Shown piece after piece: positions 1,107 through 59,605 of a stretch of DNA of 64,000 nt. The notes beneath the pieces are model-generated. The model had not been told where the DNA came from. It was given only the letters and a program-made list of their open reading frames with translations, and did not search any database. The translations under genes and the position numbers were made by a program. The DNA lies in the IMG/VR virus record IMGVR_UViG_3300021405_000012, positions 3,855 through 67,854 of that record; one strand, 5' to 3'. The stretch is from a virus. Each line of letters begins with the position of its first letter. The stretch's first letter is position 1.

Positions 1107-1107
1107 T

Positions 1108-2295
1108 TTACTCGCCGTCGAAAAGACTCCCTTGACGAAACACACGCAATCCCGGCCGTTGCCGAAACGCATCTCCCATGCGCTGGCCGACTTCTTCTTC
1201 GTTCGCGCGGGTGTACCAGTTCATCGTCTCGATGGAGGCCCACCCCATGTACTCCTGAATGTCATTCAGCGCCTTGCCCGACTGCACTAGGTGGGTTGCT
1301 GTGCTGTGCTTCAAGGTATGCGTTTTAGCCTTTCGGGAGGGGATGCCTGCTTCAAGAGCGTAGCCGTGGACGAGCTGCCAAAACCGAACCCTGGTGATGG
1401 GAAACAACCGTTCTTTGGGGTCGCCGCGACGTTTGGGAGTGGCTGGGGGCGGCTGGGGGATGGTGGCCGAAGGCAAATTGCGCAATTCCGCTTCTGCGGC
1501 CTTCCGTCGGGCGGCGGGCAGCAGTTTGCGGGCACCGGGGCCTTTGGGGGGAGGACCGACCAATCCGCTCTCTTCCATCAGGTCGATCAGATGGCACGCC
1601 CGGCCGTATGCGATTCGCAGGCCTCGCTGCAACACCGACGTCGACACTTTCCCCGCCGCGATCACCAGTTTGACGGCGTCCCCGTAGAGCGGATCCACGC
1701 CTGAGTTTTCCTCGGAATCGACGATTTGGCCAATTTGCCGATTTGGCAAGGACTTAACACTCCTCGTACAAGGTAAAGTTTTTTCACGGGTCAAAGTGCT
1801 GCATTTCCGGGCCTCGCGAGCACCGCCTTTTACCCCATAGTTTGAGCGGTTCGCGAGCCAATCTTCTATGGCCGCCTTCTCGTTGAGCAGCGGGTTTTGA
1901 TGGTGCAGAAGGGGGTGTGTGGTTTCGTCGGATCCCTTGCCGCGCTGCACCCGGATTTCCCCGTCTTTGAAGTTGGCTGCGGTAAGGTTGGTGACCTCGG
2001 AGGCCCGCAGCCCGTGAACGTAGGCGACAAGGATCATCAGCCAGTCGCGGTGTCGGTGCTTTTTGGCGGTCGCGAGGAGAGCCTGTAGTTGCTCATCGCT
2101 GAGCGAGACGGGCGGCTTCCTGCGGCGTCTGGGTTTTTTGGGCACTTTGGGTTTTGGCGGGGCGAGGGAAAACGGGGCGGCACTCACGGCAGCCTCTCCG
2201 ACGAGTTCCTTGATTCTGGCGAAGAGCGAATCTACTTCAACCCAGATGGGCGACTCAGGTTTCGGAACAACGAACAGCTTGGCAGCGCGGGGCAC
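1108..2295 (-). CDS. Tyrosine recombinase (FimB/Xer-like catalytic domain) with an inserted FtsK-gamma domain
   Basis: HGLRASE, RGKGS..TTHPL, HTLKHS.ATHL and MGW.SI..MNWYT catalytic motifs; insert DPLYGDAVKLVIAAGKVSTSVLQRGLRIAYGRACHLIDLMEESGLVGP matches the FtsK-gamma pattern. Confidence 0.88.
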   Translation of the reverse strand: MPRAAKLFVVPKPESPIWVEVDSLFARIKELVGEAAVSAAPFSLAPPKPKVPKKPRRRRKPPVSLSDEQLQALLATAKKHRHRDWLMILVAYVHGLRASEVTNLTAANFKDGEIRVQRGKGSDETTHPLLHHQNPLLNEKAAIEDWLANRSNYGVKGGAREARKCSTLTREKTLPCTRSVKSLPNRQIGQIVDSEENSGVDPLYGDAVKLVIAAGKVSTSVLQRGLRIAYGRACHLIDLMEESGLVGPPPKGPGARKLLPAARRKAAEAELRNLPSATIPQPPPATPKRRGDPKERLFPITRVRFWQLVHGYALEAGIPSRKAKTHTLKHSTATHLVQSGKALNDIQEYMGWASIETMNWYTRANEEEVGQRMGDAFRQRPGLRVFRQGSLFDGE

Positions 2296-3315: not shown

Positions 3316-3821
3316 GCGCTCTTCTCCCGCACCTTCAGCGTGGGCGTCTTCGGCTCGGGTACCTCGCACTGCGAGTACAGTGCCAGCAGTTTGGTTGACA
3401 GCTTTTCGCCTTTGACGATGACCGCAGCCTCGGGATTGAGCGTCCAGCGGATCGTCTTCTCGAAGACCTTCTTCAGCGTGCCTGCGAGCTTAGCTTTGAC
3501 CAGCGCCAGCCGGAAGCGTTCGACGGCGGCCGCGTCAATCGACGTGGAGGACCCGAACGTCCCCATGGCCTCGAGCGTGATGCCGTGCAGGATCTTCGAC
3601 TTCTCGGCGTGCGCGCTGCCGTGGGCCCGCACCAGCTCGATGATTTCCGTTTTCAGGTCGGCGAGCTGCTCGGGTTTTGGCTTGTCGCCTTCTTTGTCAC
3701 CCTTCAGCTTTTCCGCGAGTTCGAGCTTAAATTCGAGCACAGCATCGTTGATCTCTTTGTCGAGGGCGCGATACTGCTCGCACTTTTGCTCAACCTCGGC
3801 GGGAGTGGGTGCGGGAGTCAT
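3312..3821 (-). CDS. Hypothetical protein with N-terminal coiled coil
   Basis: Coupled to both neighbours; GC-rich third positions. Confidence 0.7.
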   Translation of the reverse strand: MTPAPTPAEVEQKCEQYRALDKEINDAVLEFKLELAEKLKGDKEGDKPKPEQLADLKTEIIELVRAHGSAHAEKSKILHGITLEAMGTFGSSTSIDAAAVERFRLALVKAKLAGTLKKVFEKTIRWTLNPEAAVIVKGEKLSTKLLALYSQCEVPEPKTPTLKVREKSA

Positions 3822-4219
3822 GCAACAGACATCCTCGCTCGCTCGGATTGTTCGCCGGCAAAGAAGGCCTGCACGATCGCCGAGAAGATGTAGTCCTTCA
3901 GTCGCTGATTGAACGGCAGCTGCTCGTAGGGAACAAAGCAGGGGTGCTGCTTTTTCTCTGGGTCCTTGACCGGCCCATAGATCCAGCCGTCCCGCCGCTT
4001 TTCTTCCAACCAGCTTTCATGCGAAGCCGAAGGGCTCGCAGGTCGGCCAGCGCGGAGCTCGGTCAAATGAAACCGCACCCCGTTGATTGCGGAGACTCTT
4101 TGCCAGTCCGGGGCGGTGGCCCATTCGGGCTGGGATTCGTCGCCGATGGACAGGCAGTAAGCCCGGTTGGCCTCGTGGCAAATGCTGGCGATCTGTACTT
4201 CGTTGAGCGGATCCATCAT
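3818..4219 (-). CDS. Phage RyR-domain protein
   Basis: SHESW..EK..DGWIYGPVKDPEKKQHPCFVPYEQLP motif; GAGGAGG RBS. Confidence 0.85.
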   Translation of the reverse strand: MMDPLNEVQIASICHEANRAYCLSIGDESQPEWATAPDWQRVSAINGVRFHLTELRAGRPASPSASHESWLEEKRRDGWIYGPVKDPEKKQHPCFVPYEQLPFNQRLKDYIFSAIVQAFFAGEQSERARMSVA

Positions 4220-4238
4220 TTCCTCCTCTACGGCCTGG

Positions 4239-4496
4239 TCATGGGTGTTCGTAGCGTGTCTGCCCCGCCGGACGTCCCGGCACATCCTGATGCTCCGGCT
4301 TCATGCACATGGCAATCACGGCATGCAGTTTGGCGTCTTGCAGGTGGGTTTGCACGATGGCAAATTCGCGAGTGTTTTCCGCGCAGTAGCCGCGCAGAGT
4401 CTTCAGGGTGGCGGAGAATAGCTCACCGATTTGGAGCAGCTTGTGCTGGCCCTCTTCGTTGAGCCGGTAGGTGTCGAAAAGTGGGTCCATGGTCAC
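4239..4496 (-). CDS. Acb2/Tad1-like helical-hairpin protein (candidate nucleotide sponge)
   Basis: About 85 aa with Y-R-LNEEG near the N-terminus and REFAIVQTHLQDAKLHAVIAM..P at the C-terminus, resembling Acb2-type hairpins. Confidence 0.5.
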   Translation of the reverse strand: MTMDPLFDTYRLNEEGQHKLLQIGELFSATLKTLRGYCAENTREFAIVQTHLQDAKLHAVIAMCMKPEHQDVPGRPAGQTRYEHP

Positions 4497-5134: not shown

Positions 5135-6760
5135 CTAGCGGTTTTTCCGCCCGCGCATGCGCTGCCGCGCCGTCCCGCCGTAGCTCTGCGGCTGCTTTGC
5201 CTGCTGCAATTCCCGCTGCATCTTGTCGCGGTAGAGCACCGCCGAGGTGGGGTCTTTCTTCCAGAGTTCCGCCAGGTCCTGCTCCATCTCCGCCTGTCTG
5301 GGCTTTTTGGCGGTGCGCTCGGTGGCCCAGCTGTAGTAGCCGTAGCGGCACATATCGTAAAAATCATCAAGTTCGTCGCCGGAGATTTTGTCGACGTCGC
5401 CTTCCTTGTCGGGATCCTTTTTGCGGGTTTGCAGGGCTTCGATGGTCTTCACGCAGTTGCGGCAGATTTTGAAGTCGCCGTCTTTCAGTCCGGAGTACAT
5501 CTTCATGGCTCCGCCGACGCGATCGTTTCGGGCCTTCGAGAAGCCCAGCCCGTACACTCCCAGAATCTCGTTCATCTGGTGGGCCAGGTTGAAACTCATC
5601 CCGCCGGCGCGGCCATGTTCCGACCAGGCATCGGGCGAGAGGTACCACGGCATCCAGCGGCGTTCGGGCACACTCAAGCCGCTGCCACCATCGGTCACCC
5701 AGCGTTCGACGATGGCGCCGGCGAAACCTTTGGCAGTCTTGTCGCGGAAGTCATGGCCGCCCATCTCGTCGACCATGTAGGCGACACCTTGCGGACACTC
5801 CGCGGTTTCAGGCGCGTGTTTGAACAGGCCCGCGGCTGGCGCAGAAATCGAGAAGCCGTAATCGCATCCCGGCCACTGCGGCCACCACCACTCCTCGCCA
5901 ATGTCCTTGCGATCCACGGTCATCGAGGCATAGTCCCAGATGTCAAAGAACTGGCCTTCCGTGGCTTCCCAGCATCCGGCGAGAAGCGCTTTCGCGAGCG
6001 CCGGCGACTGCATGTAGAGCTTGGCCACATAGTCCTGCCCCAACTTGTCGTGACCATAAACGCTGCCCAGGATGTAGGCGACGGAGAGCTTGTACTTGCC
6101 GTCGGGGCCTTCGAGCGGGCGGTCGTACTCCGGCCAGCGCCCATTCCACTGCAAAACTTTTTGCGGCGGGGCTTTCAGGGGTTCGCAGTGCGGACACACT
6201 CCGCCCATGAAGAGTTTCTTGTGCCATTTCGCGCCGATGTTGCCGGGGTTGGTGGTGAAGATGGCGCGGATTTTGAGGCTGGGATCGGGGGAGCGGCTGC
6301 GAGTCAGAATGGTGCGCGGAAACTTCTCTTCCCATTGCGTCGATTCATCGAAGGCGGCGGCGGAGATTTCCTTGCCCCAGTTGTTTTCGAGGTCAGCCTG
6401 GTTCTTCAGCTGGCGAAAGCGGAAGGCGGCCCCCGAGGGCCATACCCAGGTTGTGGTCAAACCTTTGTGGCGATCGACGGAACGCGCCCCGGTTTGGGGG
6501 AAGAGTTCGCCGGCAATGGTCATCGCCTGCTCCATGGCGTCATAGGTGCGGCGGAAAAAGTACGACGACATGCGCGGACCGTCGCGCTCCTGGATGAGCG
6601 AGACCAGGGCGGAGGAACTTTTCAGGCTCCCAGCCGCCCCGCCGAATAGCAGCAGATCAGCTTCGCTATCGAGTGCGTCCTCCTGGGCCTGATAGGCAGG
6701 CCACCAGCGCAAGGCCCGCCGGACTGGGTCGGGCAGCACCTGGACATCACTTGCTTGCAT
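5135..6760 (-). CDS. terL: Terminase large subunit
   Basis: Walker A FGGAAGSLKS, Walker B AAFDES, motif III TTNPG, nuclease acidic residues (CDYG, DDFYD..RY). Confidence 0.92.
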   Translation of the reverse strand: MQASDVQVLPDPVRRALRWWPAYQAQEDALDSEADLLLFGGAAGSLKSSSALVSLIQERDGPRMSSYFFRRTYDAMEQAMTIAGELFPQTGARSVDRHKGLTTTWVWPSGAAFRFRQLKNQADLENNWGKEISAAAFDESTQWEEKFPRTILTRSRSPDPSLKIRAIFTTNPGNIGAKWHKKLFMGGVCPHCEPLKAPPQKVLQWNGRWPEYDRPLEGPDGKYKLSVAYILGSVYGHDKLGQDYVAKLYMQSPALAKALLAGCWEATEGQFFDIWDYASMTVDRKDIGEEWWWPQWPGCDYGFSISAPAAGLFKHAPETAECPQGVAYMVDEMGGHDFRDKTAKGFAGAIVERWVTDGGSGLSVPERRWMPWYLSPDAWSEHGRAGGMSFNLAHQMNEILGVYGLGFSKARNDRVGGAMKMYSGLKDGDFKICRNCVKTIEALQTRKKDPDKEGDVDKISGDELDDFYDMCRYGYYSWATERTAKKPRQAEMEQDLAELWKKDPTSAVLYRDKMQRELQQAKQPQSYGGTARQRMRGRKNR

Positions 6761-7424: not shown

Positions 7425-7610
7425 ATGTTCTGGAAATTCGTGAGTGCGGTGGTTCTCGGTTTTCTCGCCGGCGAGGTTGGCTACTCGATCTGGCCTTGGA
7501 TGGCGTTCCGAGTCGCGACGGCCGTCTTGGTGGTGGCGTTCTTCTTTGCGATCGAGCCGGTTATCGGTTGGGTAGTGGATGGCGCGCCGATTCGGTTGCC
7601 CTGGCGCTGA
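7425..7610 (+). CDS. Small two-TM membrane protein (moron-like)
   Basis: Two hydrophobic segments; TG-T-TAGAGT extended -10 ends 6 nt before the ATG. Confidence 0.6.
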   Translation: MFWKFVSAVVLGFLAGEVGYSIWPWMAFRVATAVLVVAFFFAIEPVIGWVVDGAPIRLPWR

Positions 7611-10600
7611 TCACTGCGCGGCGGCCTCTGCCTTCTCAGTCTCCGCCCGTTCGCCCTTCTCCAGCAAGTTCATGCGCTTCTGGCGAACCTCGCGATGCAG
7701 CTCCTCCATTGCTTTCTTGTCACCGTCGCGCTTCGCGGCCTCGTACACGCGCATGATTTCCGAGTAGCTGAAGCCGTGAACCGTATCCTGCAACGGAGTC
7801 AGCCGGGCGCGTTCCCGGAGCTGCTTTTCCTGGGTGAGCGTGATCTGGTGTTTGGCGCGGGCCTCGGATAGAGGCTTCGAATCGCCCTTGCGCAGTGCGT
7901 CGAGAATCTCCCGGCGCCGGCTGTAGACTTGCTGCTCTTCGGGATCAACTGCCTCAGTGCCGACTTTCGTCATGGCGATATCCGCGGCGACACGCTCGGC
8001 CGGAGTCTTCACGCTCTTCAGTCCCAACTGCTGTAGCCAGAATTTCTTTCTTTGCTCGGCGCTTGACCAGGCCCGTTCGGCTTGCCCGATCTGGCCCATT
8101 TCGCCGATGACGTAGTGGCCGAGTTCGTCGCGCTGCGTCGACCAGGTCGCGTGCGGATCGACAATGTTTCGCCCGGAATACGACTCGCGGTTGTTCAGCA
8201 GGTCCATGCCACCCTTGAGCAGCGGGCTCGGCATCAGCACGCGCTGGGCGGTGGCGCCGACCCCGGCTTCCCGGCGGGCCATCTTGTCGACGGCTTCCAT
8301 GAAGCCGACCAAGCCGAAACGCTTCACCGCCAGATGCGCATCGTGGCCGAGTTCTTTGGCTTTGTCGTCGAGCCAAGGCAGGATGCCGTACATCAGCAGT
8401 GCCAGCATGGCCCACTGCGACCAGGCAGTACCAACTTCGCCCGCTTTGGAGTTGTCGCCGGTGGGCTCTTTCAGTCCCAGCGCCGCCTTGCCCATTTCGA
8501 AGGGTGCTTTAAGCAGGTGGTAGTGCCAAGGGCCGAAGATGAACACTTTCGGGCTGCGGAAGGCCTTCGAGAGCATAGTGCTGTCGGCGATGCGTGTGGG
8601 CACGCGGTAGTCGGCCAATATGCGGACCGTGTCCGCCAGCGCATCCTCGAACGACATACCCTTTGCCTGCTTCTCATAGGCCGACTGCAACAGGAAGAAA
8701 TCGCTGGAATGCCACGCCACGAAGTTCGAGAGCGTCTTCAGCGGGCCCAGGATGTAGGCGTACTTGGCCTCCGTGAGTCCGATCGCGTCGGCGATGCGCA
8801 TGGCCCACGGTTCTTTCTTGCCCAATCCCTCGGCCAGCCGTTCGTAGAAGAGCTTGGTGACATCCTGCGTCAGTTCGCGGTGGGATTGCAGCGCGGCGCC
8901 GGCATCGAGCGCAGCCTTGAAATCGTCGTTCTTGGTGAGCACCGCATGCAGCGCTTTCGAGCTGGTGCGGTACATGCGCACGTAGTTGGTGGGGAAAAAC
9001 CCGTGCAGGCCTTTCTCGACCAGCCAGTCCATGCCGACGTTGCCGGCGTGCATGAGAGGGTTGAGCAACATCACTAGGCGCATGAATTTGCCGACCTGGT
9101 CGAGCACGTTCGCCTCTCCACCCTTCAGGCTGTCGGCGTAGCGATCAAGGACCTCGGACGTCCGGGGCTCGAAGTAGTAGCCATGGAACTGCGGGAGCTG
9201 CGTGGACTTCCAGCCCTTGGGCGGATTGCCGCTGCCTTTCCAGGCAATGTCTTTGAATTCCGGCGAGGCTTTCAGGCCTTCGATGAAGTGCATCGCATCG
9301 AGCGCCGATTCCAACTGGATATTGGAAACGAGCAGAGACGCCAGCGCCGAATGATAATATTCCATGTCGGTGTTGTCCTCGATCTCGCGCGTGGTCGCCT
9401 GTACCACCTTCCAGTCGTAGCCGTCCGGCCCTTCGACGATCTTGCCCTTATCGTAGAACGCGGAATTTGGCTGGCCTTCAGGGAAGGTCTCATTCTCTTC
9501 GTCGGTTCGGCCGTTTGCGTTCTTGATCTCCCCGAGTTCGGTGGGTTCGCCTTCCTGCCACATGGTCGCGTGGCCGCCTTTGATTGAGATGACGCGCCGG
9601 TCCCCGGAATCATTCTCGATGGCCATCATGGTGCGGGTCTTCGTCTGGGGCGCGGATTTCGAGAGGCCTTTCCCGCCCACACTGGTGCGAATCTTTTGCG
9701 CGATGCGATCGAGCGCGCCGCCTTTGCCCTTCACCGTGCGGTGGACGTAGTTCTCAAGGGGCACGCCGCCGGCCGTCAGTTCGGTGTAGGCCTTCTCGTT
9801 GCGCTCCGCGATCGGCAGCATGTCATCGAAGCGGTTCTCCTGGGCGTCGGTGAGTTCGTCGCTTTCCTGGTCCTCGAGGTGGTGGTAGATGGCTTCGTCA
9901 TCGGCCTTGGTCAGCCCGGCTTTCTTGGCTTCGAGGAAGGCATCGCGGGCGCGCAGTTTGCGGGCATCTTTGCGGGTTTCGAGGGTTTCGAGCTGGTGCT
10001 CGATGTCGCGGGCGATCTTGGTAGCGGCTTTGACGTCTGTCAAGTAAGACTTTACAGCGCCGGCGGCGTCGACGGCCGCTTCGCCGAGCTTCGAGAGGTT
10101 GGCTTCTCCCGACTCGCCGGTCAGCAGGTTCTCTGCCTTCGGTGCGGGTGCTTCCTTCGGTGCGAACGATTTCGCTTCTTCGGCCATGCTGGGAGAGGCG
10201 TAGAGCGTGGTTTTCTTCAGCAGCTCCTCGATGACCTGTGTCTCCTTCCCCTTGGGGATAGCCGCCCGCATCGTGTTCTGCTGCGAAACAAAATCGCCGG
10301 TTAGGTCGGTGATGCCGTGGTCCAGGAAGTACTTGCCGCCGCGCGCCTTGGCTCTCGGCGTTACGATCGCGAGCTTTCCGGCATCGTTGACCACGCGCAC
10401 GTTTCCATCGCGGCTGGCGATGCCCATGTCCTCGATGCGCGGGTTGACGGTCTTGCGCAGGAACTTCAGCGCGTGCGCGGCGTCCCGCAGCCGGTAATCG
10501 CCTTTGGTGTTCTTGCTGAAGTCGAACTTCTTAGGCAGCAGAATGCCCTGCTCAGTTGTGCCGTCGGCCTTGGTGAAGTTGATGATCGTGCCGCGCGTGT

Positions 10601-13600
10601 CGGTCAGTTCGCCATAGGCTGCCAGCAGATTGCCGGTGATGATCTTGGCAGTCTCGCGGGTCTCGGCTTTCGTGCCGCGGAAAATGTCCTCCGGTTTGTC
10701 ATAGAGTTTCCGTTCCTCGATGCGCTGCACCTGCGTGGCTGGAACGGCGAGTGTCCGCAGGGAGCCGTTCGTCGCCAACGTGACGTTGATTTTACTGAGA
10801 GCGAACGGATTGCCGGTGCCTTTGTGGGTGCTGCGGATATTGACAACGGCGGCGTTATAGAGATCGCCATTGATTTCGACGCGCCAGGTTGAGCCGATCT
10901 CGTGGTCGCGGATGAAGTCCCGCGCCGTGCGCGCAACGATTTCAGATTGCCCCACCGTGGGGCTCGCTGGGTCGAGGGTCTGTTTGTAGTACGTGAGCTC
11001 GCCGTCTAGTTTCTCGATCAGCTCTTTTGAGTGCGCGGATGGCGTCTTGCCGTCGAGGTGCTCTTTGATGCTGGCGGTGACTTCATCGGGAGCCAGCGGT
11101 TTGCCCTGAGATTTGATCGAGTACTCCCCGTAGGTTGCGGCTTCGCCAAAGGGTGAAGCGGGATTGGTCGCCGCCACCAGTTCGTAGCCGCGGGTTTCCT
11201 TGGCGTCGTAATCGAAGGTCTTCGGCTCGAGCTCGTTCTGGTTGGTTGAATCGAGGTAAGCGATATAGTCGTTGTACTGCTGCTCGACCTCGTTATAGAA
11301 CGCCTCTTGCACTTTGACCGGAAGGATCGCCAACCGCCCAGTTGCCTTGCGGGCGATGTCCTCAGTCGGGCTGCCGTCCTCGTTGAGCGGAGTGACGTGC
11401 AGCATGCTCGCGAGTTCCGCGTTGTCTCCGAGATAGTTTCCGACAATCTGATCGCCGTACTTGTTGAGCATGTCCGCGGCTTTTACCGAGGTCGCGGATT
11501 CTGTGTTGCTCGAAGTGTTCGCGTTCAGCGACTTCATTTTCTTCGACAGCAGGGCCGTCGGGCGCTTCTCTGCCGGCAGGTCGGCGTTGAGGATGGTGTA
11601 TCCGGGTAGCCGCACTTGGCCGGTGCGGTTGATTCGCCCCAGCATCTGCATGAAGATGTTGATGTCCTGCGCCGGCTGGGCAACGATCATATGGCGCGGC
11701 TTCTGGTCTTTGAACTTCTCGGAAGCGTGGGCGCTGATGCCCGTCGAGCCAGCCACATTCAGCAGAAGGGAATCCAGGCGGCCATCGTTGAACCGGCGAA
11801 TGGTCTCGACTTTATCGTTCTGCTCCTTCAGCGGGACGTGCGACAGCTTCGGCTGCTCTGGGTTGCTGTAGTCCACGGACAGATTGCGGCCGGTGATTTC
11901 AGCCACGGTGTAGCCCGCATCCTCGATGCGCTGGCGGATCCAGTCGATCGGTGACACCGGAAGATCAATCTTCAGCTTGTCGATGGTCTTCTGGGCGTCA
12001 TCATAGGCATGCCGGGTCACGGGATCCAGTTCGTCGAGGGGAACGTACTTCTTGGTTTTGTTGCCCATGGCGTCGGTGATCTGCAAGTACCGGCTGCGAT
12101 CAAGGGCGCGCGAGAGCACGTTGCGGTAGTCGAAGTCTTCAAGCCGATCTCCGGGCTGTAATCCCTTGTCGCCAACGTAGGCCGAGAGGAATGAACCCAT
12201 CGTGTTATCGACGGCAATGACTGGCTTTTCGCCGCGCTTGATTGACGCGATCGCATCATCGGCTGCGGTGTTGGCCTTGATGCCCAGCAGCATCTGGCGC
12301 ACGAAGTTGTGAACCACCGAGGAGAACTCGGTGTGGTGTACCGACTTGCCGGCCTCGTTTCCACCGCCAACGATTTTGTTGGCCTTGTTCTCTGCGACAG
12401 CCGCCTTCTGTGCCTCTCCGACGTAGGTCGTATGGAAGGACTTGTCGGCGTCCACGATCGCGCGCAGGGCGCTGGTGGCACCGTCGGCAATCTTGGTGTG
12501 TTCGGCCCGGTGCTCGGTATCCACCTTGGTCGCCATGCTGATGCCGTCGTAGGAACGCTCCCGGCGGAACATCTGGCCAGCCTTCACCAGATTGTTCGAG
12601 ACCACGGTTTGCAGGGGCAGGCCGCCGTCTTTCATGGCCTGCACCAGTGTGCCGCTGTCGCCGATGGCTTCGCCCATGTCCGTCTTGAAATAAAGCGGCA
12701 TGTTGTCGGGGCGCTTTGCGTAGGTGGCCGAGAGGTAGGTCACGCCTTTGGCGTCGGCCAGCAGGCCACGAAGGAAGTCGCCGGTGTTCGACGAACCGCC
12801 GGCGTTGTGGGATTCGTCCAGAACAAAGATCGCTTTCCGCGCCAGCGACATAAGCATTCCCTGCTGGGCGTTGTGCACATTGACCTGCGAGTAGGTCAGA
12901 AACACCGCGTTGCGGCCGGCGGGCAGCGTCCCAGTGTTGCGAATCTGCTCTATCAGCTTTCGATGATTGGGCTTGTTGGCGAAGGCGCGGCTGCCGTCCG
13001 GGCGCGTGATCCACTCGTCTGAATTCACAATGAAGGGATTCACGTCATCCGTTCCGATGTCCGAGAGATCGCCGTACATATCGGTGAACAGGGACGGCGC
13101 TTTGGTGATGAAGACGGGGATATCGCCTTTCTTGGCGGCCCAGCGGATGATGGCCGCAGCCTGGCGTCCTTTGCCGATGCCGGTCTGATCGGCAATGACG
13201 ATGGCTTTGCCCTGCTGGATTTCGTGGATAGCTGCGGCAACCGAGTCAACCTGCAACCCCATAAAAGCGTTGTGCAGGTCGTCGACCGAGGGATAGCCAA
13301 GTTCCTTCGCCACGTACTTGTCGAGGTTGCCGACTTCATCTTCGAGGACGTTCATCGCCTGCTCCAGAGGCGATTTCATGTTTACCGGGATCAGGACGTT
13401 GGCGTCTTTTTTCTCCGAGGCCGGGGTGTAGGGAGTTTGGAAGTCGTTCGACTTCGGACTTATTGCGCTAGGGCTTCCGTTATCTGGTCGAGAGTTGGCA
13501 ACTCGCTCGGGTCGAGACTCAGGCTTGTGCCCTTTTTCCAGTCGATCCGAGTGAGCAATGTCTGCATCTGGCCGCAGGCTAGGATCTGAGACGGCCACTC

Positions 13601-16600
13601 TTCCGTCTCGTCCTGCATTGCGATCTGATACAGGTCCGACAGATTCTCCGGATCGCTCGACAGCACCTGCTGCGCCTGCTCCGGGTCGTCCTCGATCAGT
13701 TTTCTCAGGCGCTGCTCCAGGAGTGTTTCGTACAGGCTGCGATTCATCGGCTGGCTGCCGCTGTAGGGAACTGTCAGCCCCTCGCTCCCGTGCAGGTCGG
13801 GGCTCGGCCGCCATGATTTCACTGAACTGCTCATACACCTGATCCCATGACTCTAGTCGTTGGATGCTTTCAACCGGAGGGGCGATTGCAGAAGATGTTT
13901 GCCTTCCGCCGATCGCGATAACCCGAACTGGCCACGCCGCACCCTGGCGCCCATAGAGTTTTCCCTCGATCTCGAAATGCCCACTCACATCATAGTGCGA
14001 ATAGAGCCAATTTAGGAAGATATTGTCATCGGTGCTTTGGCCGCCGGGGGTGAACTTGTTGGCTCCGAGGATCAGGGTAGCCTTCCCGTCGTCCTTCATG
14101 GCGTCAAGGGCTCGAGCTGCAATCAGGTGGTCGATCTGGCCGATCTTGTAGCCGTCTACACGTTCCTTCGTCGCTTTGCCCTGGGCGTCTTTCACCGAGC
14201 CGAACGGCGGGTTGGCCACAACCGCGTCGTATGCCTTACCCAGAGTGGCCTTATGTGCTGGGCTCCACGCCTCTGCGGCATCCCGTTGGGTGACTTCCTG
14301 GTATCCCTGCTTTTGCAGTGCAGCCATGCGCTCCGGGTTGAGCTCGTTCACCCGCGTCTTCTTGGGGTTCGCTGCGATGGTGAGCATGCCGTTGCCGGCA
14401 GTCGGCTCGTAGAGACTGCTGTTCTTATCGACTCCCGCCAATTTGTCCGCGAGGTAGGCCAGCGGCGCGGGTGTGCTGTAGGCCTGGTTCTCGATGCTGG
14501 TCGAGGTACGGATGTTCAGGTTTGGCTGGGAATTGTAGAGATCGACCAGTTTGTCGAAGGTCTCGCGTGTGTTCTCACCTGCGTCAACGATATCGCGCGC
14601 GCGCTGGACCACGGCAACTTCGAGTGCTTCCTGCGCCTGCTTCATTCGAGCCGGGTCCGCAGGCTTGCCGTCGAAGGCGTCTACGAGCTTTTTCAGCGCT
14701 GGGTTGTCTTTCGGCATTTCACCGGCGGCGATCTTCTCCAGCAGGTGTTCGGTGAGAGCGGCGGCGCCTTTGCTGGTTTTGCCTTTCTGGATGTCGGCCC
14801 AGCCGGGTTTCTTCGGCTCTTCTGCGTGCGGCCGCGCTTCGTAGCTGCCCTCCGGGGTGGGAACGATGTCGGCCTTCTTGACGGTGAATTTCGGCTTCTC
14901 CTCGCCTTTCTTAAGCCCATGCGTCACGAAGCTGGGCAGCACGTACTTGGCGGGCTTCTCTCCCGCGAGCTTGACCACCTCCTGCTTGCCCTGCCGATCG
15001 GTGATCGCGATTTCACTAACTGTGAACTGTTTACCCTTGGTCAACTCCATGCCGACGTGCCTCTCTGCTCGGTCGGGGCGGACGTAGGCTATAGTTGCGT
15101 GAGGTCGGTACTCGAAGTCGGGCTTTTTGAAATCGCCATGCTTCTCCAGTTCCCCATTGATCCGGTGCAACTCCGGCGCCTCAATCGGTGCGATGATGAC
15201 GGCGGCGCCGTCGCTGTGCTCGCTGGGCGGGAACTTGTCAGTTTTCCCGAGCGTAGCCTCGAACGGCGCGAGGCCTGCCAGATACTTCTTGACGCCTTCG
15301 ACGTCGTCGCCCTTGATCCCGTAGCGTACCGTTACATGATTTCCGCCCTCTCCGATATCTTTGCCGTCTCCAGCGAGGTCCGCTTTCGAGATGCGGGCCC
15401 GAGCGGCTTCTAGAGCTTTGGCAGCTTCGCTCTCTTTGGGAATGTTGGCCTGGGTTGATCCGAATTTGTAGAGCGTCTCAGGTTTGTCGGCTTCACCGCG
15501 GTAAAGTCGGACTGTTCCTGCCCCCCGCGGTACTGCCGGCTTCTCCGCCCGCACCTTCTGCCCAACGTCCGGGCCCGTCTCAATCGAGTGATCGAAGCCG
15601 TGCTGCGTGATGTTCCGCTTTGCCGGGAAGACGGCACCTTTGGCTGGCTCGGAACTTCCGCCCTTGAGGCCCATGCTCTTGGTGACGATCCCGCCCGGCT
15701 CCGGCTTTTCTCCCAACTCCATTTCGAGGTTGGTCGAGTGCGTCACCACCAGTGGCCGCTTGCCTGCCTTCGCCATGCCCTCGATTTCGGCGAGCGCTTC
15801 GTCCTGGCGCTCCTTGGCCTGGTTATAGGATTCCCCGCCTTTCGGCACTTCGTCAGGATGGGCTTTGTAGTGATCCCGGATGTGCTGGATGTCGGAAACC
15901 TGCTTGCCTTCGGTTTCCGGCATACGCTGCGGCCGCAACCGTTCGTCGGCTTCGACGGGTACGCCCAGAGCTTTGCCGACAATGTCGGCGGTCTCTTTCG
16001 CGCGCGGCAAGTCTGATGTCACGATGGCAGTGGGTGGATTCCCTTTCAGGTCCGCCGCCATCTTCTGGGCAGCGGCTTTGCCACGCTCATCAAGACTCTC
16101 ATCCGACCAACCCGCGACAGTTTCTCTTCCTCCGGCTTGGTCGAGTTTGGTGGCGCCATGACGCCCGAATATGATCTCTCCGGCCTTGATGTCAGTCTTG
16201 GCGGTTTGCTCAACTTGCTTCTCGCCGGCGGCGGAGAGTGTCGCGTGGTGACGCTTGGGGATGGTGGTAGTCGATTTCGGCTCGGACATCCAGGGCAGCT
16301 GGGTAGGCTCGTCGAATTTCACCCGCACCGTGCGCAGCCCGCCGATCAGGCCATCGTGCTTGATTTCGGCTTCGGTGTTGCCGGCGGCGCCGATTTGGAT
16401 CCGGCTGCCCTTTGCGAAGCTTCCAGCAACTCCTTGGCCCGGGGCAGCAGCTCCAGATACTTCTCCGCCACCTGTTCGAGTGTCAATGTTTCGCTCAGGC
16501 AGGTTGGTTCCGGCAGCGGCGGCGGTGGATCCGGCAGCAGCAGTCGAAACGTCCTCGCGCTGATTAGCTCGATCGTGCTCGTCTGCTGCGAGTACCGCTG

Positions 16601-18146
16601 GCTTCGAAGTTTCACTGGGTATCTCCTCTTCGCCCACGATTGTAGGTGCGACATCCACATTCGTGGACGCTGGGATTGGCTCTTCGGCTAGAATTGCAGG
16701 CTGAGCTTGCCCGAGCTCGGCGGCACGCCCGCTACGGGTTTGCCGTGACCCCCTGGTTTCCTTGGGGGCAGCCGCCGGTTTGGTAGCTGCCCCCGATTTG
16801 CCCGTCTCCCCAGAGTTCCGGGCAAATTCCTTCTCCTGGCGCGCAACTTCGTCGTTGATGATCGATTGGGCGACCGAGGCGGCTTGTTTCTCATTTTCGA
16901 TAATGTGTAACTGGCCGTCTGGCCCAACGATTTTCCCCTGTTGCAGCAACACTTTAGACAGGGTTTCATGGGCTTCCATGACGCCTTGGGCGCGCAGGTT
17001 CTCCGGCAGCTTGACCAGCAGTTTGGCGATTCCAGAGACCGTATCCGAGGAAATGTGGCCCTGCTGGATGTCCTGGGGCAGAGGTGGGCCTTGCGGGGTT
17101 GGCTCCGGTTCTACAGGGGGCATGCCACGCACCACGCGGGCGGCTGCGGTGCGTTTGGCGGCGGCGGCGACCAGAGCGCTGGCTCCGTTGTCGGGCGGCC
17201 CTGCAGGGGCGGTTTGCTGGCCTTCGATGGTGGGAGGCTCCAAACCGGGACCCGCAGGCCGATTTCCCCGAGGGATGACAGTCTCACCCCGAAACGACCC
17301 TACTCCACCGCGCAGGCGGATTTCTTCAGGAGTGACCGCGATGCCAGCGCCAGCACGGCCATTGGCAACGGTTGCAGCCGCCCGAGTCCCTTCCGGACCG
17401 CTTTCCATGGAGAACTTGGGCCGCAGCCGGTTGGCGTCTGCGGCGAAGTAGGCGCTCAGCCCGGTCTTGGTGGCAATCTCCGAGCGTTCCATGGGGGTGA
17501 GTTCATCCCAGTGGTCGTGGAGCTGCTTGGCTCCGTCGATCGCGCCCGCGCCGAGCATGGTGCGGAAACCGCCGCTGATGATTTTTTGCAGGATGGGTCG
17601 GGCGGCCGCGCTCGCGAAGAAAGGCCAGTTGCGCACATCGCCGACCGTGCCGCCAGCGAATTCGCCGACACCCTTGATGGCTCCCATGGTCTTCGGGGCA
17701 TAAAACTCCATCGCTTTGACCGCATCGCCTTGGGGCGCTCCCGGTTTCAGTTCTGGCCGGAGAATCGGTTGCAACACAACTGAAGCCGCGCCCTCGGCAA
17801 TCTCGCCGCCAGCCTTCGCGGTGCGCGCAGCTGCGCGTTCGAACGGCTGCACCAGTGTGCGGTTCGCCAGATCCAGCGCGGGCACCGCCGCCTGCGGCAC
17901 CATTTCGCCGAGACGTTCTTCGGGCGTGGGCTGGTTCGGAGCGGCTTGATAGCTGGAACCGGTGCGCTGGGCGGGGGGCAGAACTTCGGGGTGAAGGATG
18001 CTGGGACGGGCTGGGGCTGCGGCTACAGCGGGCGGAATCGGCTCTTCGCCGACTATCTGGAACTTCGGGGCGGAGGAAGGGCGGGGTTGAGCGCTGGGCG
18101 CAGGGATGGGCTCTTCGCCAACAATCTGATAGGTGGGGTCGGGCAC
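7611..18146 (-). CDS. Giant polyvalent virion/ejection protein (DarB-like): His phosphatase, 2H phosphoesterase, amino-methyltransferase, Strawberry-notch SF2 helicase, helical C-terminal region
   Basis: RHG...TSDLPRA..TA...VVTHS; HVT...HAT; YSTPAPLA, EPTAGNG, NPPF; DQTGIGKGRQ, DESH, SAT, QMLGRINRTGQ; last of the ejection-type genes. Confidence 0.88.
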   Translation of the reverse strand: MPDPTYQIVGEEPIPAPSAQPRPSSAPKFQIVGEEPIPPAVAAAPARPSILHPEVLPPAQRTGSSYQAAPNQPTPEERLGEMVPQAAVPALDLANRTLVQPFERAAARTAKAGGEIAEGAASVVLQPILRPELKPGAPQGDAVKAMEFYAPKTMGAIKGVGEFAGGTVGDVRNWPFFASAAARPILQKIISGGFRTMLGAGAIDGAKQLHDHWDELTPMERSEIATKTGLSAYFAADANRLRPKFSMESGPEGTRAAATVANGRAGAGIAVTPEEIRLRGGVGSFRGETVIPRGNRPAGPGLEPPTIEGQQTAPAGPPDNGASALVAAAAKRTAAARVVRGMPPVEPEPTPQGPPLPQDIQQGHISSDTVSGIAKLLVKLPENLRAQGVMEAHETLSKVLLQQGKIVGPDGQLHIIENEKQAASVAQSIINDEVARQEKEFARNSGETGKSGAATKPAAAPKETRGSRQTRSGRAAELGQAQPAILAEEPIPASTNVDVAPTIVGEEEIPSETSKPAVLAADEHDRANQREDVSTAAAGSTAAAAGTNLPERNIDTRTGGGEVSGAAAPGQGVAGSFAKGSRIQIGAAGNTEAEIKHDGLIGGLRTVRVKFDEPTQLPWMSEPKSTTTIPKRHHATLSAAGEKQVEQTAKTDIKAGEIIFGRHGATKLDQAGGRETVAGWSDESLDERGKAAAQKMAADLKGNPPTAIVTSDLPRAKETADIVGKALGVPVEADERLRPQRMPETEGKQVSDIQHIRDHYKAHPDEVPKGGESYNQAKERQDEALAEIEGMAKAGKRPLVVTHSTNLEMELGEKPEPGGIVTKSMGLKGGSSEPAKGAVFPAKRNITQHGFDHSIETGPDVGQKVRAEKPAVPRGAGTVRLYRGEADKPETLYKFGSTQANIPKESEAAKALEAARARISKADLAGDGKDIGEGGNHVTVRYGIKGDDVEGVKKYLAGLAPFEATLGKTDKFPPSEHSDGAAVIIAPIEAPELHRINGELEKHGDFKKPDFEYRPHATIAYVRPDRAERHVGMELTKGKQFTVSEIAITDRQGKQEVVKLAGEKPAKYVLPSFVTHGLKKGEEKPKFTVKKADIVPTPEGSYEARPHAEEPKKPGWADIQKGKTSKGAAALTEHLLEKIAAGEMPKDNPALKKLVDAFDGKPADPARMKQAQEALEVAVVQRARDIVDAGENTRETFDKLVDLYNSQPNLNIRTSTSIENQAYSTPAPLAYLADKLAGVDKNSSLYEPTAGNGMLTIAANPKKTRVNELNPERMAALQKQGYQEVTQRDAAEAWSPAHKATLGKAYDAVVANPPFGSVKDAQGKATKERVDGYKIGQIDHLIAARALDAMKDDGKATLILGANKFTPGGQSTDDNIFLNWLYSHYDVSGHFEIEGKLYGRQGAAWPVRVIAIGGRQTSSAIAPPVESIQRLESWDQVYEQFSEIMAAEPRPARERGADSSLQRQPADESQPVRNTPGAAPEKTDRGRPGAGAAGAVERSGESVGPVSDRNAGRDGRVAVSDPSLRPDADIAHSDRLEKGHKPESRPERVANSRPDNGSPSAISPKSNDFQTPYTPASEKKDANVLIPVNMKSPLEQAMNVLEDEVGNLDKYVAKELGYPSVDDLHNAFMGLQVDSVAAAIHEIQQGKAIVIADQTGIGKGRQAAAIIRWAAKKGDIPVFITKAPSLFTDMYGDLSDIGTDDVNPFIVNSDEWITRPDGSRAFANKPNHRKLIEQIRNTGTLPAGRNAVFLTYSQVNVHNAQQGMLMSLARKAIFVLDESHNAGGSSNTGDFLRGLLADAKGVTYLSATYAKRPDNMPLYFKTDMGEAIGDSGTLVQAMKDGGLPLQTVVSNNLVKAGQMFRRERSYDGISMATKVDTEHRAEHTKIADGATSALRAIVDADKSFHTTYVGEAQKAAVAENKANKIVGGGNEAGKSVHHTEFSSVVHNFVRQMLLGIKANTAADDAIASIKRGEKPVIAVDNTMGSFLSAYVGDKGLQPGDRLEDFDYRNVLSRALDRSRYLQITDAMGNKTKKYVPLDELDPVTRHAYDDAQKTIDKLKIDLPVSPIDWIRQRIEDAGYTVAEITGRNLSVDYSNPEQPKLSHVPLKEQNDKVETIRRFNDGRLDSLLLNVAGSTGISAHASEKFKDQKPRHMIVAQPAQDINIFMQMLGRINRTGQVRLPGYTILNADLPAEKRPTALLSKKMKSLNANTSSNTESATSVKAADMLNKYGDQIVGNYLGDNAELASMLHVTPLNEDGSPTEDIARKATGRLAILPVKVQEAFYNEVEQQYNDYIAYLDSTNQNELEPKTFDYDAKETRGYELVAATNPASPFGEAATYGEYSIKSQGKPLAPDEVTASIKEHLDGKTPSAHSKELIEKLDGELTYYKQTLDPASPTVGQSEIVARTARDFIRDHEIGSTWRVEINGDLYNAAVVNIRSTHKGTGNPFALSKINVTLATNGSLRTLAVPATQVQRIEERKLYDKPEDIFRGTKAETRETAKIITGNLLAAYGELTDTRGTIINFTKADGTTEQGILLPKKFDFSKNTKGDYRLRDAAHALKFLRKTVNPRIEDMGIASRDGNVRVVNDAGKLAIVTPRAKARGGKYFLDHGITDLTGDFVSQQNTMRAAIPKGKETQVIEELLKKTTLYASPSMAEEAKSFAPKEAPAPKAENLLTGESGEANLSKLGEAAVDAAGAVKSYLTDVKAATKIARDIEHQLETLETRKDARKLRARDAFLEAKKAGLTKADDEAIYHHLEDQESDELTDAQENRFDDMLPIAERNEKAYTELTAGGVPLENYVHRTVKGKGGALDRIAQKIRTSVGGKGLSKSAPQTKTRTMMAIENDSGDRRVISIKGGHATMWQEGEPTELGEIKNANGRTDEENETFPEGQPNSAFYDKGKIVEGPDGYDWKVVQATTREIEDNTDMEYYHSALASLLVSNIQLESALDAMHFIEGLKASPEFKDIAWKGSGNPPKGWKSTQLPQFHGYYFEPRTSEVLDRYADSLKGGEANVLDQVGKFMRLVMLLNPLMHAGNVGMDWLVEKGLHGFFPTNYVRMYRTSSKALHAVLTKNDDFKAALDAGAALQSHRELTQDVTKLFYERLAEGLGKKEPWAMRIADAIGLTEAKYAYILGPLKTLSNFVAWHSSDFFLLQSAYEKQAKGMSFEDALADTVRILADYRVPTRIADSTMLSKAFRSPKVFIFGPWHYHLLKAPFEMGKAALGLKEPTGDNSKAGEVGTAWSQWAMLALLMYGILPWLDDKAKELGHDAHLAVKRFGLVGFMEAVDKMARREAGVGATAQRVLMPSPLLKGGMDLLNNRESYSGRNIVDPHATWSTQRDELGHYVIGEMGQIGQAERAWSSAEQRKKFWLQQLGLKSVKTPAERVAADIAMTKVGTEAVDPEEQQVYSRRREILDALRKGDSKPLSEARAKHQITLTQEKQLRERARLTPLQDTVHGFSYSEIMRVYEAAKRDGDKKAMEELHREVRQKRMNLLEKGERAETEKAEAAAQ
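13460..13747 (-). CDS. Nested acidic helical protein in the +1 frame within the giant gene (start could be 13834)
   Basis: MNRSLYETLLEQRLRKLIEDDPEQAQQ...; codons end mostly in G/C in this frame while the giant frame switches to GGA/CGA/CCT/GCA. Confidence 0.65.
   Translation of the reverse strand: MNRSLYETLLEQRLRKLIEDDPEQAQQVLSSDPENLSDLYQIAMQDETEEWPSQILACGQMQTLLTRIDWKKGTSLSLDPSELPTLDQITEALAQ
16346..16615 (-). CDS. Second nested protein in the +1 frame within the giant gene
   Basis: GAGGAG-N7-GTG start; G/C-ending codons in the nested frame; amphipathic helix LTLEQVAEKYLELLPRAKELLE. Confidence 0.5.
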   Translation of the reverse strand: MKLRSQRYSQQTSTIELISARTFRLLLPDPPPPLPEPTCLSETLTLEQVAEKYLELLPRAKELLEASQRAAGSKSAPPATPKPKSSTMA

Positions 18147-25761: not shown

Positions 25762-26490
25762 TTATCCGGTCGGGATGCGGAAGCTGTTCGGGCCTTGCCG
25801 CATGCCGCTGCGCCGTCCCCCCAGCCGCTGCCGCTGGCCGTGCTTAGGCTTGATCTGGTTGTTCTCGAAATTCGCCTTCGAGCGCCCTAGCTCTTCTTTC
25901 CAGGACACGGCTTCCGCCGAAGCTGCCCCGCCACGGCTTTTCGCAATCGACCAGCAAATCCAGTAGACGAGGATGTTGACGACGCCGCGAATCGGCTGGT
26001 TGGGGGAATCGGCATCGAGGTTCGCGGGCAAAGCCTGAAAGCGCACCCGGAGATCGACCACCGACTGCGACGGGCTGATGAAGATGATTCCATCGCGCCA
26101 CTCCCAGCTTTCAACATCCATCGCATCCGAGGCGACTGCCGCGCCCGGCAGTCCGGTGCCAGTGTCGGTATCGAGCACTTTTGCGACTGGGTCGACCACC
26201 TCCCAGTCCTGCTGGTTTTCGCCACTCAGCCGCCATTCGATGGTGATGGGCATCGTCATGCAGGCGAGCGGCCCGCCAATCACCTGAAAGCTCGACAGGT
26301 CGGTGGTATTGGCCGCGACCGCCGGCAGGATGACCACCTGGGTATCGAAGTTCAGGTCGAGTGATTCGAGTTCCTGCTCGAGATCGTCATTCTTGATGGC
26401 GAGCACCTGGCAGATGAAGTCCGCATCCGTCCAGGTCGCTCCAAAGTCGCGCAGTTCCCACTGCACGCGCTTGATGATGAGAGGAACCAC
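25762..26490 (-). CDS. Putative head-tail adaptor
   Basis: N-terminal IIKRVQWELRD..WTDADF helix pattern; position upstream of nozzle. Confidence 0.55.
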   Translation of the reverse strand: MVPLIIKRVQWELRDFGATWTDADFICQVLAIKNDDLEQELESLDLNFDTQVVILPAVAANTTDLSSFQVIGGPLACMTMPITIEWRLSGENQQDWEVVDPVAKVLDTDTGTGLPGAAVASDAMDVESWEWRDGIIFISPSQSVVDLRVRFQALPANLDADSPNQPIRGVVNILVYWICWSIAKSRGGAASAEAVSWKEELGRSKANFENNQIKPKHGQRQRLGGRRSGMRQGPNSFRIPTG

Positions 26491-29334: not shown

Positions 29335-29442
29335 AAGAGTTGTGGTGATCCCATCGGGAAAGTGTTAAGCTGGACAGAGAAAAGGCCACGCACTGTTGCG
29401 AACAGCGACGTGGCCGACACCGCTCTCACGGGAGGAGAGACG

Positions 29443-30288: not shown

Positions 30289-30311
30289 CCCCAACACGTA
30301 AGTTGTTGATT

Positions 30312-33580: not shown

Positions 33581-33753
33581 GCTCCCGCCTTCTCTTTCGC
33601 GTCGAAGATGGGATAGACCATCGCCAGCAGCTCCGCGATCGTAAATTTCTCTTTCAGGCTGCGCAGCTCGACGGTGACATCGTGCTGACCGAAGAGGCCC
33701 ACAGTGACCTTCATCACACTGCCGTCGGGCGCTTGATATTCCACATCTGCCAT
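33577..33753 (-). CDS. Small hypothetical protein (58 aa)
   Basis: Manual translation MADVEYQAPDGSVMKVTVGLFG...; TGATG coupling to the portal stop and GAGGAG RBS. Confidence 0.6.
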   Translation of the reverse strand: MADVEYQAPDGSVMKVTVGLFGQHDVTVELRSLKEKFTIAELLAMVYPIFDAKEKAGA

Positions 33754-59574: not shown

Positions 59575-59605
59575 CTTCCCCTCCCGGCGAACCCGCACAG
59601 AGTCT

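Follow-up and report, generated by a model that had tools for sequence, protein, structure and literature searches.

The closest described counterparts of the gene studied here are the polyvalent proteins of phages, defined in the survey of Iyer, Burroughs, Anand, de Souza and Aravind (2017, J Bacteriol 199:e00245-17; PMC5512222); what is taken from it here follows passages of its text. These passages place polyvalent genes among late and virion genes and describe a dyad of a methylase and a superfamily 2 (SF2) helicase, the archetype of which is the head protein DarB of phage P1, with the Strawberry-notch helicase as a rarer case. For the 2H phosphoesterase domains of the class they propose roles as Usb1-like RNases or as destroyers of 2'-5' oligoadenylate or cyclic-nucleotide defence signals; they also state that these domains never accompany RNA ligases and that captured polyvalent genes may serve hosts. 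The viral 2H enzyme Acb1 is described, in the part of PMC9117128 that deals with its product, as inactivating signals by ring opening alone, which gives GpAp with a 3' phosphate. The animal Sts/UBASH3 proteins, according to a section of PMC10218301, carry in one chain a 2H phosphodiesterase, which converts 2',3'-cyclic nucleotide monophosphates (2',3'-cNMP) to 3'-NMP, and a histidine phosphatase. Here we analyse a 64,000-nucleotide stretch of viral DNA (IMG/VR record IMGVR_UViG_3300021405_000012, positions 3,855 to 67,854; the whole stretch is called the window) and in it the gene at 7611..18146 on the minus strand, which encodes a giant protein of 3,511 amino acids (aa), P0001. Two features of this protein are new: a histidine phosphatase directly upstream of a 2H domain, and a mosaic build in which frames at both ends enclose a varying enzyme cargo.

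Judged by its sequence, P0001 belongs to the polyvalent protein class. It combines disparate enzyme domains, it is encoded by a phage near late genes, and it is homologous to proteins that carry domains of the class. In a whole-length, word-indexed search 2,374 candidates were scored, 327 of them reached E <= 0.001 and 120 were listed. All 120 listed relatives carry the Strawberry-notch helicase pair, and many of them also contain the Pfam domains ART-PolyVal, ddrB-ParB, LPD38/39, InPase, PBECR, RadC, SLT or GGDEF. A few are named "PLxRFG domain-containing protein"; a regular expression for the PLxRFG motif found none in P0001. The preliminary description of this DNA had pictured a protein ejected with the DNA that shields it from restriction and destroys immune signals. 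Since the 2017 survey describes both the dyad and the 2H roles, P0001 falls within a known class, and the core of that picture had already been printed as a prediction.

The gene is a single uninterrupted open reading frame (ORF) of 3,511 codons with a GTG start and no internal stops in its translation. No evident Shine-Dalgarno sequence lies upstream of the start codon; a start at or near 18146 is plausible because the BLAST alignment of the relative P0123 to P0001 begins at aa 2. An identical copy of the protein, P0002, was also found. The parts of the protein are as follows, all on the minus strand and in order from the N-terminus.

7611..18146, minus strand: giant polyvalent protein P0001, 3,511 aa, single ORF.
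16227..18146, minus strand: N-terminal frame, aa 1-640, rich in proline and alanine, no Pfam match at E <= 10.
15669..16178, minus strand: compact branch-1 histidine phosphatase, aa 657-826 (Pfam, AlphaFold2, Foldseek).
15480..15668, minus strand: disordered linker between phosphatase and 2H domain, aa 827-889, about 60 residues, with predicted local distance difference test (pLDDT) scores below 50 at model residues 187-229 and 234-248.
14937..15479, minus strand: 2H phosphoesterase domain, aa 890-1070 (Pfam 2_5_RNA_ligase2, AlphaFold2).
14502..14759, minus strand: helical region before the methylase, aa 1130-1215, where the 2017 scheme has LPD36.
13962..14501, minus strand: gamma-class N6-adenine DNA methyltransferase, aa 1216-1395 (Pfam, PHROG, alignment to DarB).
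13347..13961, minus strand: low-complexity linker, aa 1396-1600, read from the translation, no domain match.
11247..13346, minus strand: Strawberry-notch-type SF2 helicase, aa 1601-2300 (Pfam AAA_34 and Helicase_C_4, PHROG 14770).
10140..11246, minus strand: conserved region after the helicase, aa 2301-2669, part of the shared core, present in 119-120 of the 120 listed relatives to about aa 2650, no Pfam match.
7614..10139, minus strand: C-terminal frame, aa 2670-3511, about 840 aa (BLAST to the C-termini of other giants).

Four enzyme domains had been named beforehand: a histidine phosphatase at about 15680-16185 (about aa 654-822), a 2H domain with HVT and HAT at about 14960-15480 (about aa 889-1062), an NPPF methyltransferase at about 13850-14520 (about aa 1209-1432) and a Strawberry-notch helicase at about 11300-13450 (about aa 1565-2282). 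Pfam and the location of the motifs place all four there, with their catalytic motifs intact. The Pfam E-values and the folds are far beyond chance and, judged by these motifs, the enzymes look catalytically competent. Against NCBIfam the protein gave phosphatase equivalogs only, each far below its cut-off, and PADLOC returned nothing notable (DrmD at E 0.0072).

Concerning the phosphatase, Pfam His_Phos_1 matches aa 658-807 (E 3.7e-27, 95.7 bits against a cut-off of 21.7). The domain has the histidine of RHG (662-664), the two arginines, the glutamate donor and the distal histidine of the branch-1 histidine phosphatases, the further motifs being SDLPR (711-715), GGES (770-773) and THS (802-804). 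In the alignment of its subfamily RHG, SDLxR, GE[ST] and THS are invariant in all 14 sequences. The nearest solved relative by sequence is Bacillus PhoE (E 5.7e-13), and by fold Foldseek gives mycobacterial Rv2419c (1.7e-9) and PhoE (1h2e, 1.7e-8), both of which are phosphatases of broad specificity or for sugar phosphates. The sequence does not point to a specific substrate, because the NCBIfam equivalogs all score far below their cut-offs. An AlphaFold2 model of aa 641-1100 (mean pLDDT 80.7, predicted template modelling score (pTM) 0.49) contains two confident domains, aa 657-826 and aa 890-1070, the mutual arrangement of which is not confident.

The second of these is the 2H domain. Pfam 2_5_RNA_ligase2 matches it at aa 931-1054 (E 2.6e-11, 44.2 bits against a cut-off of 27), and its motifs are HVT (937-939) and HAT (1016-1018). 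The tetrad of both histidines and both threonines is invariant in 27 of 27 sequences of its clade. Foldseek with the two-domain model was dominated by phosphatase matches, and the 2H domain was therefore folded and searched alone; with 27 sequences AlphaFold2 gave a mean pLDDT of 93.3 and a pTM of 0.84. The best Foldseek matches are Thermus TT0787, an Arabidopsis cyclic phosphodiesterase (CPDase), Usb1 and a Deinococcus CPDase; Acb1 (7t26) stands at rank 30. Among the 48,161 chains compared with VIA-align, the top matches are the CPDase drCPDase (5h7f, Z 15.0), Pyrococcus horikoshii LigT (1vgj, Z 14.8) and YjcG (2d4g, Z 14.1), followed by Escherichia coli ThpR (4qak) and human Usb1 (both Z 13.9). 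The LigT-like matches thus span Z 13.9-15.0 over 151-165 aligned residues. Of the viral signal degraders, the penguinpox cGAMP phosphodiesterase reached Z 12.1, Acb1 and ns2 of mouse hepatitis virus 11.7, and a Burkholderia phage phosphodiesterase 11.6.

The preliminary description had drawn a parallel with Acb1, which did not hold up as a specific likeness: Pfam Acb1 (PF23474) gave no match to P0001 at E <= 0.1, and Acb1 scored Z 11.7 against 13.9-15.0. Some kinship is visible in the clade. Of its other 81 members, 22 give a weaker second match to Pfam Acb1 over the same stretch; five of these 22 reach the Acb1 cut-off (27 bits), and every one of the matches scores lower than that to 2_5_RNA_ligase2. 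These counts over 81 members, like those given below, combine two Pfam runs with different E-value limits. In the precomputed Pfam lists of the 120 listed core relatives, eight carry 2_5_RNA_ligase2 and eight PF23474. A profile of the clade had no match among PDB sequences, phmmer with the 2H domain alone gave a chance ribosomal match only, and our literature search on the phosphodiesterase of phage BCSR5 (PDB 9q2y) found nothing. As far as sequence and model allow, we regard the domain as a genuine 2H enzyme; in the superfamily it is Acb1's sister, but it stands nearer to cellular cyclic phosphodiesterases.

Two side observations concern other members of the clade. Many short 2H relatives (for example P0222, P0232, P0240, P0242 and P0264) have the motif R[YF]S.DQPRD..GK[FW]..GG just after the 2H domain; by eye there is none in P0001, and in other polyvalent lineages the motif may serve as a linker or as a cleavage signal. 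A HAD-like DxDG motif that inspection by eye showed on the N-terminal side of the 2H domain of P0232 and P0237 was discarded, having no Pfam support.

The joining of the two domains is rare. When aa 641-1100 were compared by phmmer with 1.84 billion cluster representatives, 6,402 matches reached E <= 0.001, and 181 of them E <= 1e-30. The tandem was counted in 151 proteins, that is, the best 150 phmmer matches listed and P0003 from the whole-length search. Phosphatase and 2H domain occur together in nine of these: seven full-length giants of 2,359-4,201 aa (P0001 included) and two N-terminally cut fragments. The phosphatase precedes the 2H domain in all seven full-length proteins, and Pfam confirms this in each of the six relatives tested. 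A phosphatase without a 2H domain is found in six proteins, at least two of which stop with the domain or shortly behind it and are possibly truncated. At the genomic loci of the 2H clade the phosphatase is present in one of three related viral loci and in none of 33 bacterial-genome loci, and none of the ten records of the GenBank phage collection that match either domain carries both. Of the 50 BFVD matches listed, not one spans both domains convincingly, and when bacterial-genome contigs were scanned with the whole tandem as one protein, no relative came up. Our literature search found no paper on a phage 2H–histidine phosphatase tandem among those listed; the word 'phosphatase' is absent from the main text of the 2017 survey, whose supplements lay outside the search and may hold an entry. 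The tandem had been singled out in advance as the unusual part of the protein, and the counts bear this out.

The centre of P0001 holds the methylase and the helicase. An Eco57I-type methylase is found at aa 1236-1373 (Pfam, E 3.5e-6; PHROG 9133, E 3.8e-16), with the motifs STP (1224-1226), EPTAGNG (1247-1253) and NPPF (1312-1315). The helical region before it, a candidate LPD36 by position, is covered by 115 of the 120 listed relatives and has no Pfam match and, by regular expression, no GxG[GAS]; a GxGU motif goes with LPD36 in the 2017 scheme. Both helicase models score above cut-off and together span aa 1646-2243: AAA_34 at aa 1646-1874 (E 3e-12, 46.5 bits) and Helicase_C_4 at aa 2080-2243 (E 1e-18, 68.5 bits). 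The region matches PHROG 14770 (E 2.4e-68), and its motifs are Walker A GIGKGR (1656-1661), DESH (1777-1780) and motif VI QMLGRINRTGQ (2167-2177). When P1 DarB (AAQ13985.1, 2,255 aa) was compared by BLASTP with aa 1101-2700 of P0001, only the methylase aligned (E 0.001, 27% identity over 144 aa), and the alignment takes in the TP, EPxAGxG and NPPF-type motifs. The likeness to DarB drawn in the preliminary description therefore stands for the architecture and for the methylase, and does not extend to an alignment of the helicases. On these alignments the two proteins have an architecture in common and methylases that are distant relatives, and they are not orthologues.

The distribution of matches along the protein differs strongly between centre and ends. 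In BLAST of the query against the 120 listed relatives, aa 1151-2650 are covered by 115-120 of them, parts of aa 1-1100 by 1-13 only, and aa 2701-3500 by 2-5. The N-terminal frame has a conserved core at about aa 250-450 (16797-17399), common to about 11-13 of the 120 and found also in the phosphatase-bearing giants. The C-terminal frame is 41-52% identical to the C-termini of P0122, P0123, P0125, P0139 and P0145 (BLAST). What these five proteins have in common with P0001 is part of the N-terminus (running from about aa 250-365 to aa 447), the phosphatase, accompanied by the 2H domain or not, and roughly the last 840 residues; the methylase-helicase centre is not shared. In its place an SNF2-type helicase and a methylase are found in P0123 and P0139, and nothing recognisable in P0122 and P0125; of the other phosphatase giants, P0124 has Helicase_C only and P0126 a ddrB-ParB nuclease. 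The C-terminal frame also has 11 relatives of 652-1423 aa, among which P0270 (1,319 aa) consists of little beyond phosphatase and frame. By language-model features, its nearest Atlas clusters are viral (88-100% of members) and named 'hypothetical protein', and two of the five shown contain LPD38 or LPD39. Searches with this frame gave no Pfam match at E <= 10 and no tblastn match in 50,697 phage records. P0001 is thus a mosaic, its end frames being shared with one set of giant proteins and its methylase-helicase centre with another; both ends may be carrier parts and the enzymes exchangeable cargo.

One further observation concerns the N-terminal frame, in which four copies of [IL][VL][GA]EE[PE]IP flank the N-terminal domain (aa 8-15, 31-38, 485-492 and 503-510; 16626-18125). 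The narrower pattern [GA]EE[PE][ILV]P occurs in none of 277 other fetched proteins, the identical copy P0002 excepted. The copies are possible processing or docking sites.

From this domain content the following mode of action can be proposed. P0001 would be a polyvalent effector packed in the phage head and released into the cell along with the DNA, its N- and C-terminal frames presumably serving packaging or ejection. In a first unit, the N6-adenine methylase and the Strawberry-notch translocase would track the entering DNA and methylate it before host restriction; DNA protection is inferred here from the analogy with DarB. In a second unit, the 2H domain would open a 2',3'-cyclic phosphate, or cut a 3'-5' bond via such an intermediate, and the histidine phosphatase would strip the resulting terminal phosphate, the substrates being host defence or second-messenger signals and their cyclic-phosphate products. 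The product of a 2H enzyme acting on a 2',3'-cyclic phosphate, or on a 3'-5' bond by way of one, is a phosphomonoester at the 2' or 3' position, and the 3'-phosphate product of Acb1 could be taken by a phosphatase.

We put the probability that phosphatase and 2H domain form a coupled pair acting on small nucleotides at roughly 0.4, both the sequential action and the substrate being deduced. Among the other 81 members of the 2H clade, Pfam finds RelA_SpoT in six (three above cut-off) and GGDEF in four, both second-messenger synthetases. In the window no RNA ligase, polynucleotide kinase or tRNA gene was found by Pfam on 177 ORFs (44 of at least 120 aa, hand-picked, and 133 further ones of at least 100 aa) and by ARAGORN (0 genes). 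A small-nucleotide substrate is favoured because of these synthetase partners, the weak kinship to Acb1 and the absence from the window of such RNA-repair genes. The lean over RNA ends is slight, and RNA-end clean-up is about as likely. A narrower version, in which P0001 is a pre-loaded two-step eraser whose 2H domain linearises cyclic oligonucleotide signals or opens their cyclic-phosphate products before the phosphatase strips the phosphate, appears doubtful. If true, it would mean that the fragments could not be re-closed or reused by host 3'-phosphate or cyclic-phosphate ligases or cyclases, and degradation would be irreversible. Such a logic is not known from the counter-defence of phages, and it would be a convergence with the domain pairing of the animal Sts immune regulators. 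Two-step destruction of signals had been put forward in the preliminary description; its second step is chemically possible, but inactivation does not require it, as Acb1 stops at GpAp.

A number of observations weigh against the coupled reading or against its setting. Ring opening alone inactivates the signals of CBASS, an antiphage defence that signals through cyclic oligonucleotides, as stated in the same part of PMC9117128, and the 2H fold is nearest to cellular cyclic phosphodiesterases, not to viral signal degraders (VIA-align). The linker of about 60 residues between the two domains is disordered, and the model (pTM 0.49) has no confident contact between them. Each domain also occurs without the other: 136 of the 151 proteins have a 2H domain and no phosphatase (65 of at least 1,500 aa, 19 of less than 450 aa), and P0139 (4,116 aa), P0145 (2,277 aa) and P0270 (1,319 aa) have a phosphatase and no 2H domain. 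The phosphatase-bearing giants have N- and C-terminal frames in common as well and, since they share these frames, the tandem may reflect common descent and not functional selection. For the DNA-protecting unit, the DarB helicase has no significant BLASTP alignment with that of P0001. Concerning delivery, neither a MuF domain nor a zincin peptidase was detected in P0001, nor an ArdC-N domain, and most neighbouring genes are without a recognisable family.

Among the other explanations, RNA repair survives best and is a possibility that we hold tentatively. The delivered pair would clean RNA 3' ends. Metal-independent RNases of the host (anticodon nucleases, HEPN or toxin RNases) leave a 2',3'-cyclic phosphate; the 2H domain would open it to either a 2'- or a 3'-phosphate, and the phosphatase, standing in for KptA/Tpt1, would remove the phosphate, after which the tRNA or mRNA end could be extended or rejoined by host enzymes. 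The closest folds are indeed cyclic phosphodiesterases (drCPDase, LigT, YjcG and ThpR at Z 13.9-15.0), and removal of the phosphate matters for reuse of an end and is unneeded for inactivating a signal. Also, in three of the 81 clade members, the metagenomic proteins P0190, P0242 and P0259, a Zeta/PNK-like P-loop kinase lies next to the 2H domain. A pairing of 2H and P-loop kinase resembles the healing half of the fungal tRNA ligase. RNA repair is opposed by the lack of RNA ligase, polynucleotide kinase and tRNA genes in the window, and by the 3'-OH end that the pair would leave, which is not known as a substrate of the host ligase RtcB. The 2017 survey, in the passage on this point, likewise saw no such 2H domain with RNA ligases.

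It is unlikely that the phosphatase is an independent cargo acting elsewhere, on a phosphoprotein, a sugar phosphate or the nucleotide pool, and that its adjacency to the 2H domain only reflects one inherited N-terminal frame. The solitary phosphatases and 2H domains counted above fit such independence, as do the disordered linker, the model without an interface, the flanking frames common to the phosphatase-bearing proteins and the nature of the nearest solved phosphatases, PhoE and Rv2419c. Against it stand the constant order of phosphatase and 2H domain in the 7/7 full-length proteins that have both, despite differing centres (Strawberry-notch, SNF2, ParB-like) and the animal Sts proteins, which join the same two superfamilies independently.

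The coupled pair, like RNA repair, is proposed for a delivered protein, and for delivery the neighbourhood of the gene is relevant. The window, part of a virus record, encodes a tyrosine integrase, the large subunit of terminase, an endolysin of the M15 type and a peptide deformylase, nearly all on the minus strand. The neighbouring and accessory genes are listed below.

33753..36077, minus strand: probable portal, a protein of 774 aa (feature score of 0.97 in Atlas to clusters with P22_portal or SU10_portal).
25762..26490, minus strand: possible head-tail adaptor (Pfam SU10_adaptor, E 3.6e-4, 21.5 bits, below the cut-off of 27).
5135..6760, minus strand: terminase large subunit, downstream of the giant gene (PHROG 979, E 1.8e-28).
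1108..2295, minus strand: tyrosine integrase (Pfam Phage_integrase, E 2.8e-26; FtsK_gamma, E 4.2e-18).
39740-40402, minus strand: peptide deformylase (E 5.6e-39).
3818-4285, minus strand: RyR-domain protein, accessory gene.
249-1172, minus strand: weak radical-SAM match, accessory gene.
59113-59598, minus strand: ASCH-domain protein, accessory gene.

The giant gene lies in a same-strand block, after the probable portal, the weak adaptor match and a gene for a 1,191-aa protein and before the terminase. The portal ORF has no PHROG, Pfam or PDB sequence match, and among the neighbouring genes that lacked any match in PHROGs (E <= 0.1), in Pfam and in three PDB sequence searches, only this one was recognised, via Atlas. 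Parts of the neighbourhood are conserved: at locus L003 homologues of the 1,191-aa protein and of the 177-aa and 190-aa neighbours lie in the same order upstream of a 4,155-aa giant gene, and at L004 the giant gene has a homologue of the terminase downstream of it. A fusion of the same 2H clade with a Phage_portal domain exists in P0261, and in the Tunturiibacter phage Tunturi_5 it is found in a 1,362-aa protein encoded between connector and minor-tail genes. P22-like phages have ejection proteins at a comparable place in the genome. From class membership and gene position we consider that P0001 is rather probably delivered in the particle. The opposite view, that the protein is made and active inside the infected or lysogenic cell, for instance against superinfecting elements, is improbable: P0001 lacks a MuF or portal fusion, and service to hosts is suggested for captured polyvalent genes in the 2017 text, but the gene sits in the conserved block with portal, possible adaptor and terminase, and a clade relative is itself fused to a portal.

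The phage is an uncultured temperate one, probably with a P22/SU10-like head. The closest genomic copies of the 2H clade come from metagenome-assembled genomes of Acidobacteriaceae and Terriglobales (76%, 66% and 63% identity), the closest cultured phage infects Tunturiibacter, an acidobacterium, and the window has about 60% G+C. The host is likely to belong to the Acidobacteriota, as far as these sequence relations indicate.

Some observations on other ORFs of the window were also made. The integrase ORF (1108-2295) has an FtsK-gamma winged-helix at aa 200-258, and FtsK_gamma is found also in the giants P0011, P0021 and P0106. On the plus strand, the ORF at 28765-30288 has an HNH_3 match (E 1.3e-6, aa 278-321) and overlaps the minus-strand ORFs 28462-29334 and 29365-30543; a small HNH gene of the plus strand may lie within the structural block here. 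Also on the plus strand, a 61-aa ORF with two hydrophobic helices (7425-7610) is convergent with the giant gene and stops exactly at its end; it might encode a small membrane protein.

Polyvalent proteins are thought to be the phage's time-zero load into the cell, and almost none has been tested. P0001 offers a separable two-enzyme cassette of about 430 residues, with both active sites invariant and a few dozen natural relatives. The cassette bears on the question raised in 2017, namely whether 2H domains, once delivered, destroy immune nucleotides or mend the ends of RNA, and on what a phosphatase contributes. The mosaic, with its shared end frames and swappable enzyme centres, suggests a division into carrier and cargo and is of use in annotating the many giant soil-phage genes of unknown function. 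What merits bench work is the phosphatase-2H cassette and the mosaic of frames and cargo.

Compared with the known systems, P0001 is closest to the polyvalent proteins of the 2017 survey, with which it shares the giant multi-enzyme build, the late-gene block, the adenine methylase-SF2 helicase pair, the 2H cargo and the predicted co-delivery with the DNA; it differs in its added histidine phosphatase and in the Strawberry-notch type of its helicase. P1 DarB, whose orthologues are characterised by protecting DNA in cis against type I restriction, resembles P0001 in that a single large chain holds a methylase bearing NPPF-like and EPxAGxG motifs and, after it, an SF2 helicase, and in that its gene adjoins head genes, but it is without the phosphatase, the 2H domain and the C-terminal frame. 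Concerning the 2H domain alone, the LigT/ThpR, YjcG and CPDase structures (5h7f, 1vgj, 2d4g, 4qak, 1iuh) are the best structural matches and cover it whole. Pfam places it in the same family above cut-off, and the two HxT motifs and the fold are shared, whereas identity is only 12-22% and the domain of P0001 is embedded in a giant phage protein. Acb1 (PDB 7t26/7t27), a nuclease that cuts 3'3'-cGAMP or cA3 on the 3' side of adenosine, shares the 2H fold, the HxT/HxT tetrad and the viral setting, but has about 150 aa compared with about 180 aa for the larger domain of P0001. The Sts/UBASH3/TULA proteins, like P0001, unite a 2H domain with a branch-1 histidine phosphatase in a single polypeptide. 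In these, however, the order is reversed, with the 2H domain first, UBA and SH3 domains are present (Pfam finds neither in P0001), and the phosphatase acts on phosphotyrosine. We see no sign of common descent between the Sts fusion and the tandem of P0001, and only the pairing of the two superfamilies is common to both.

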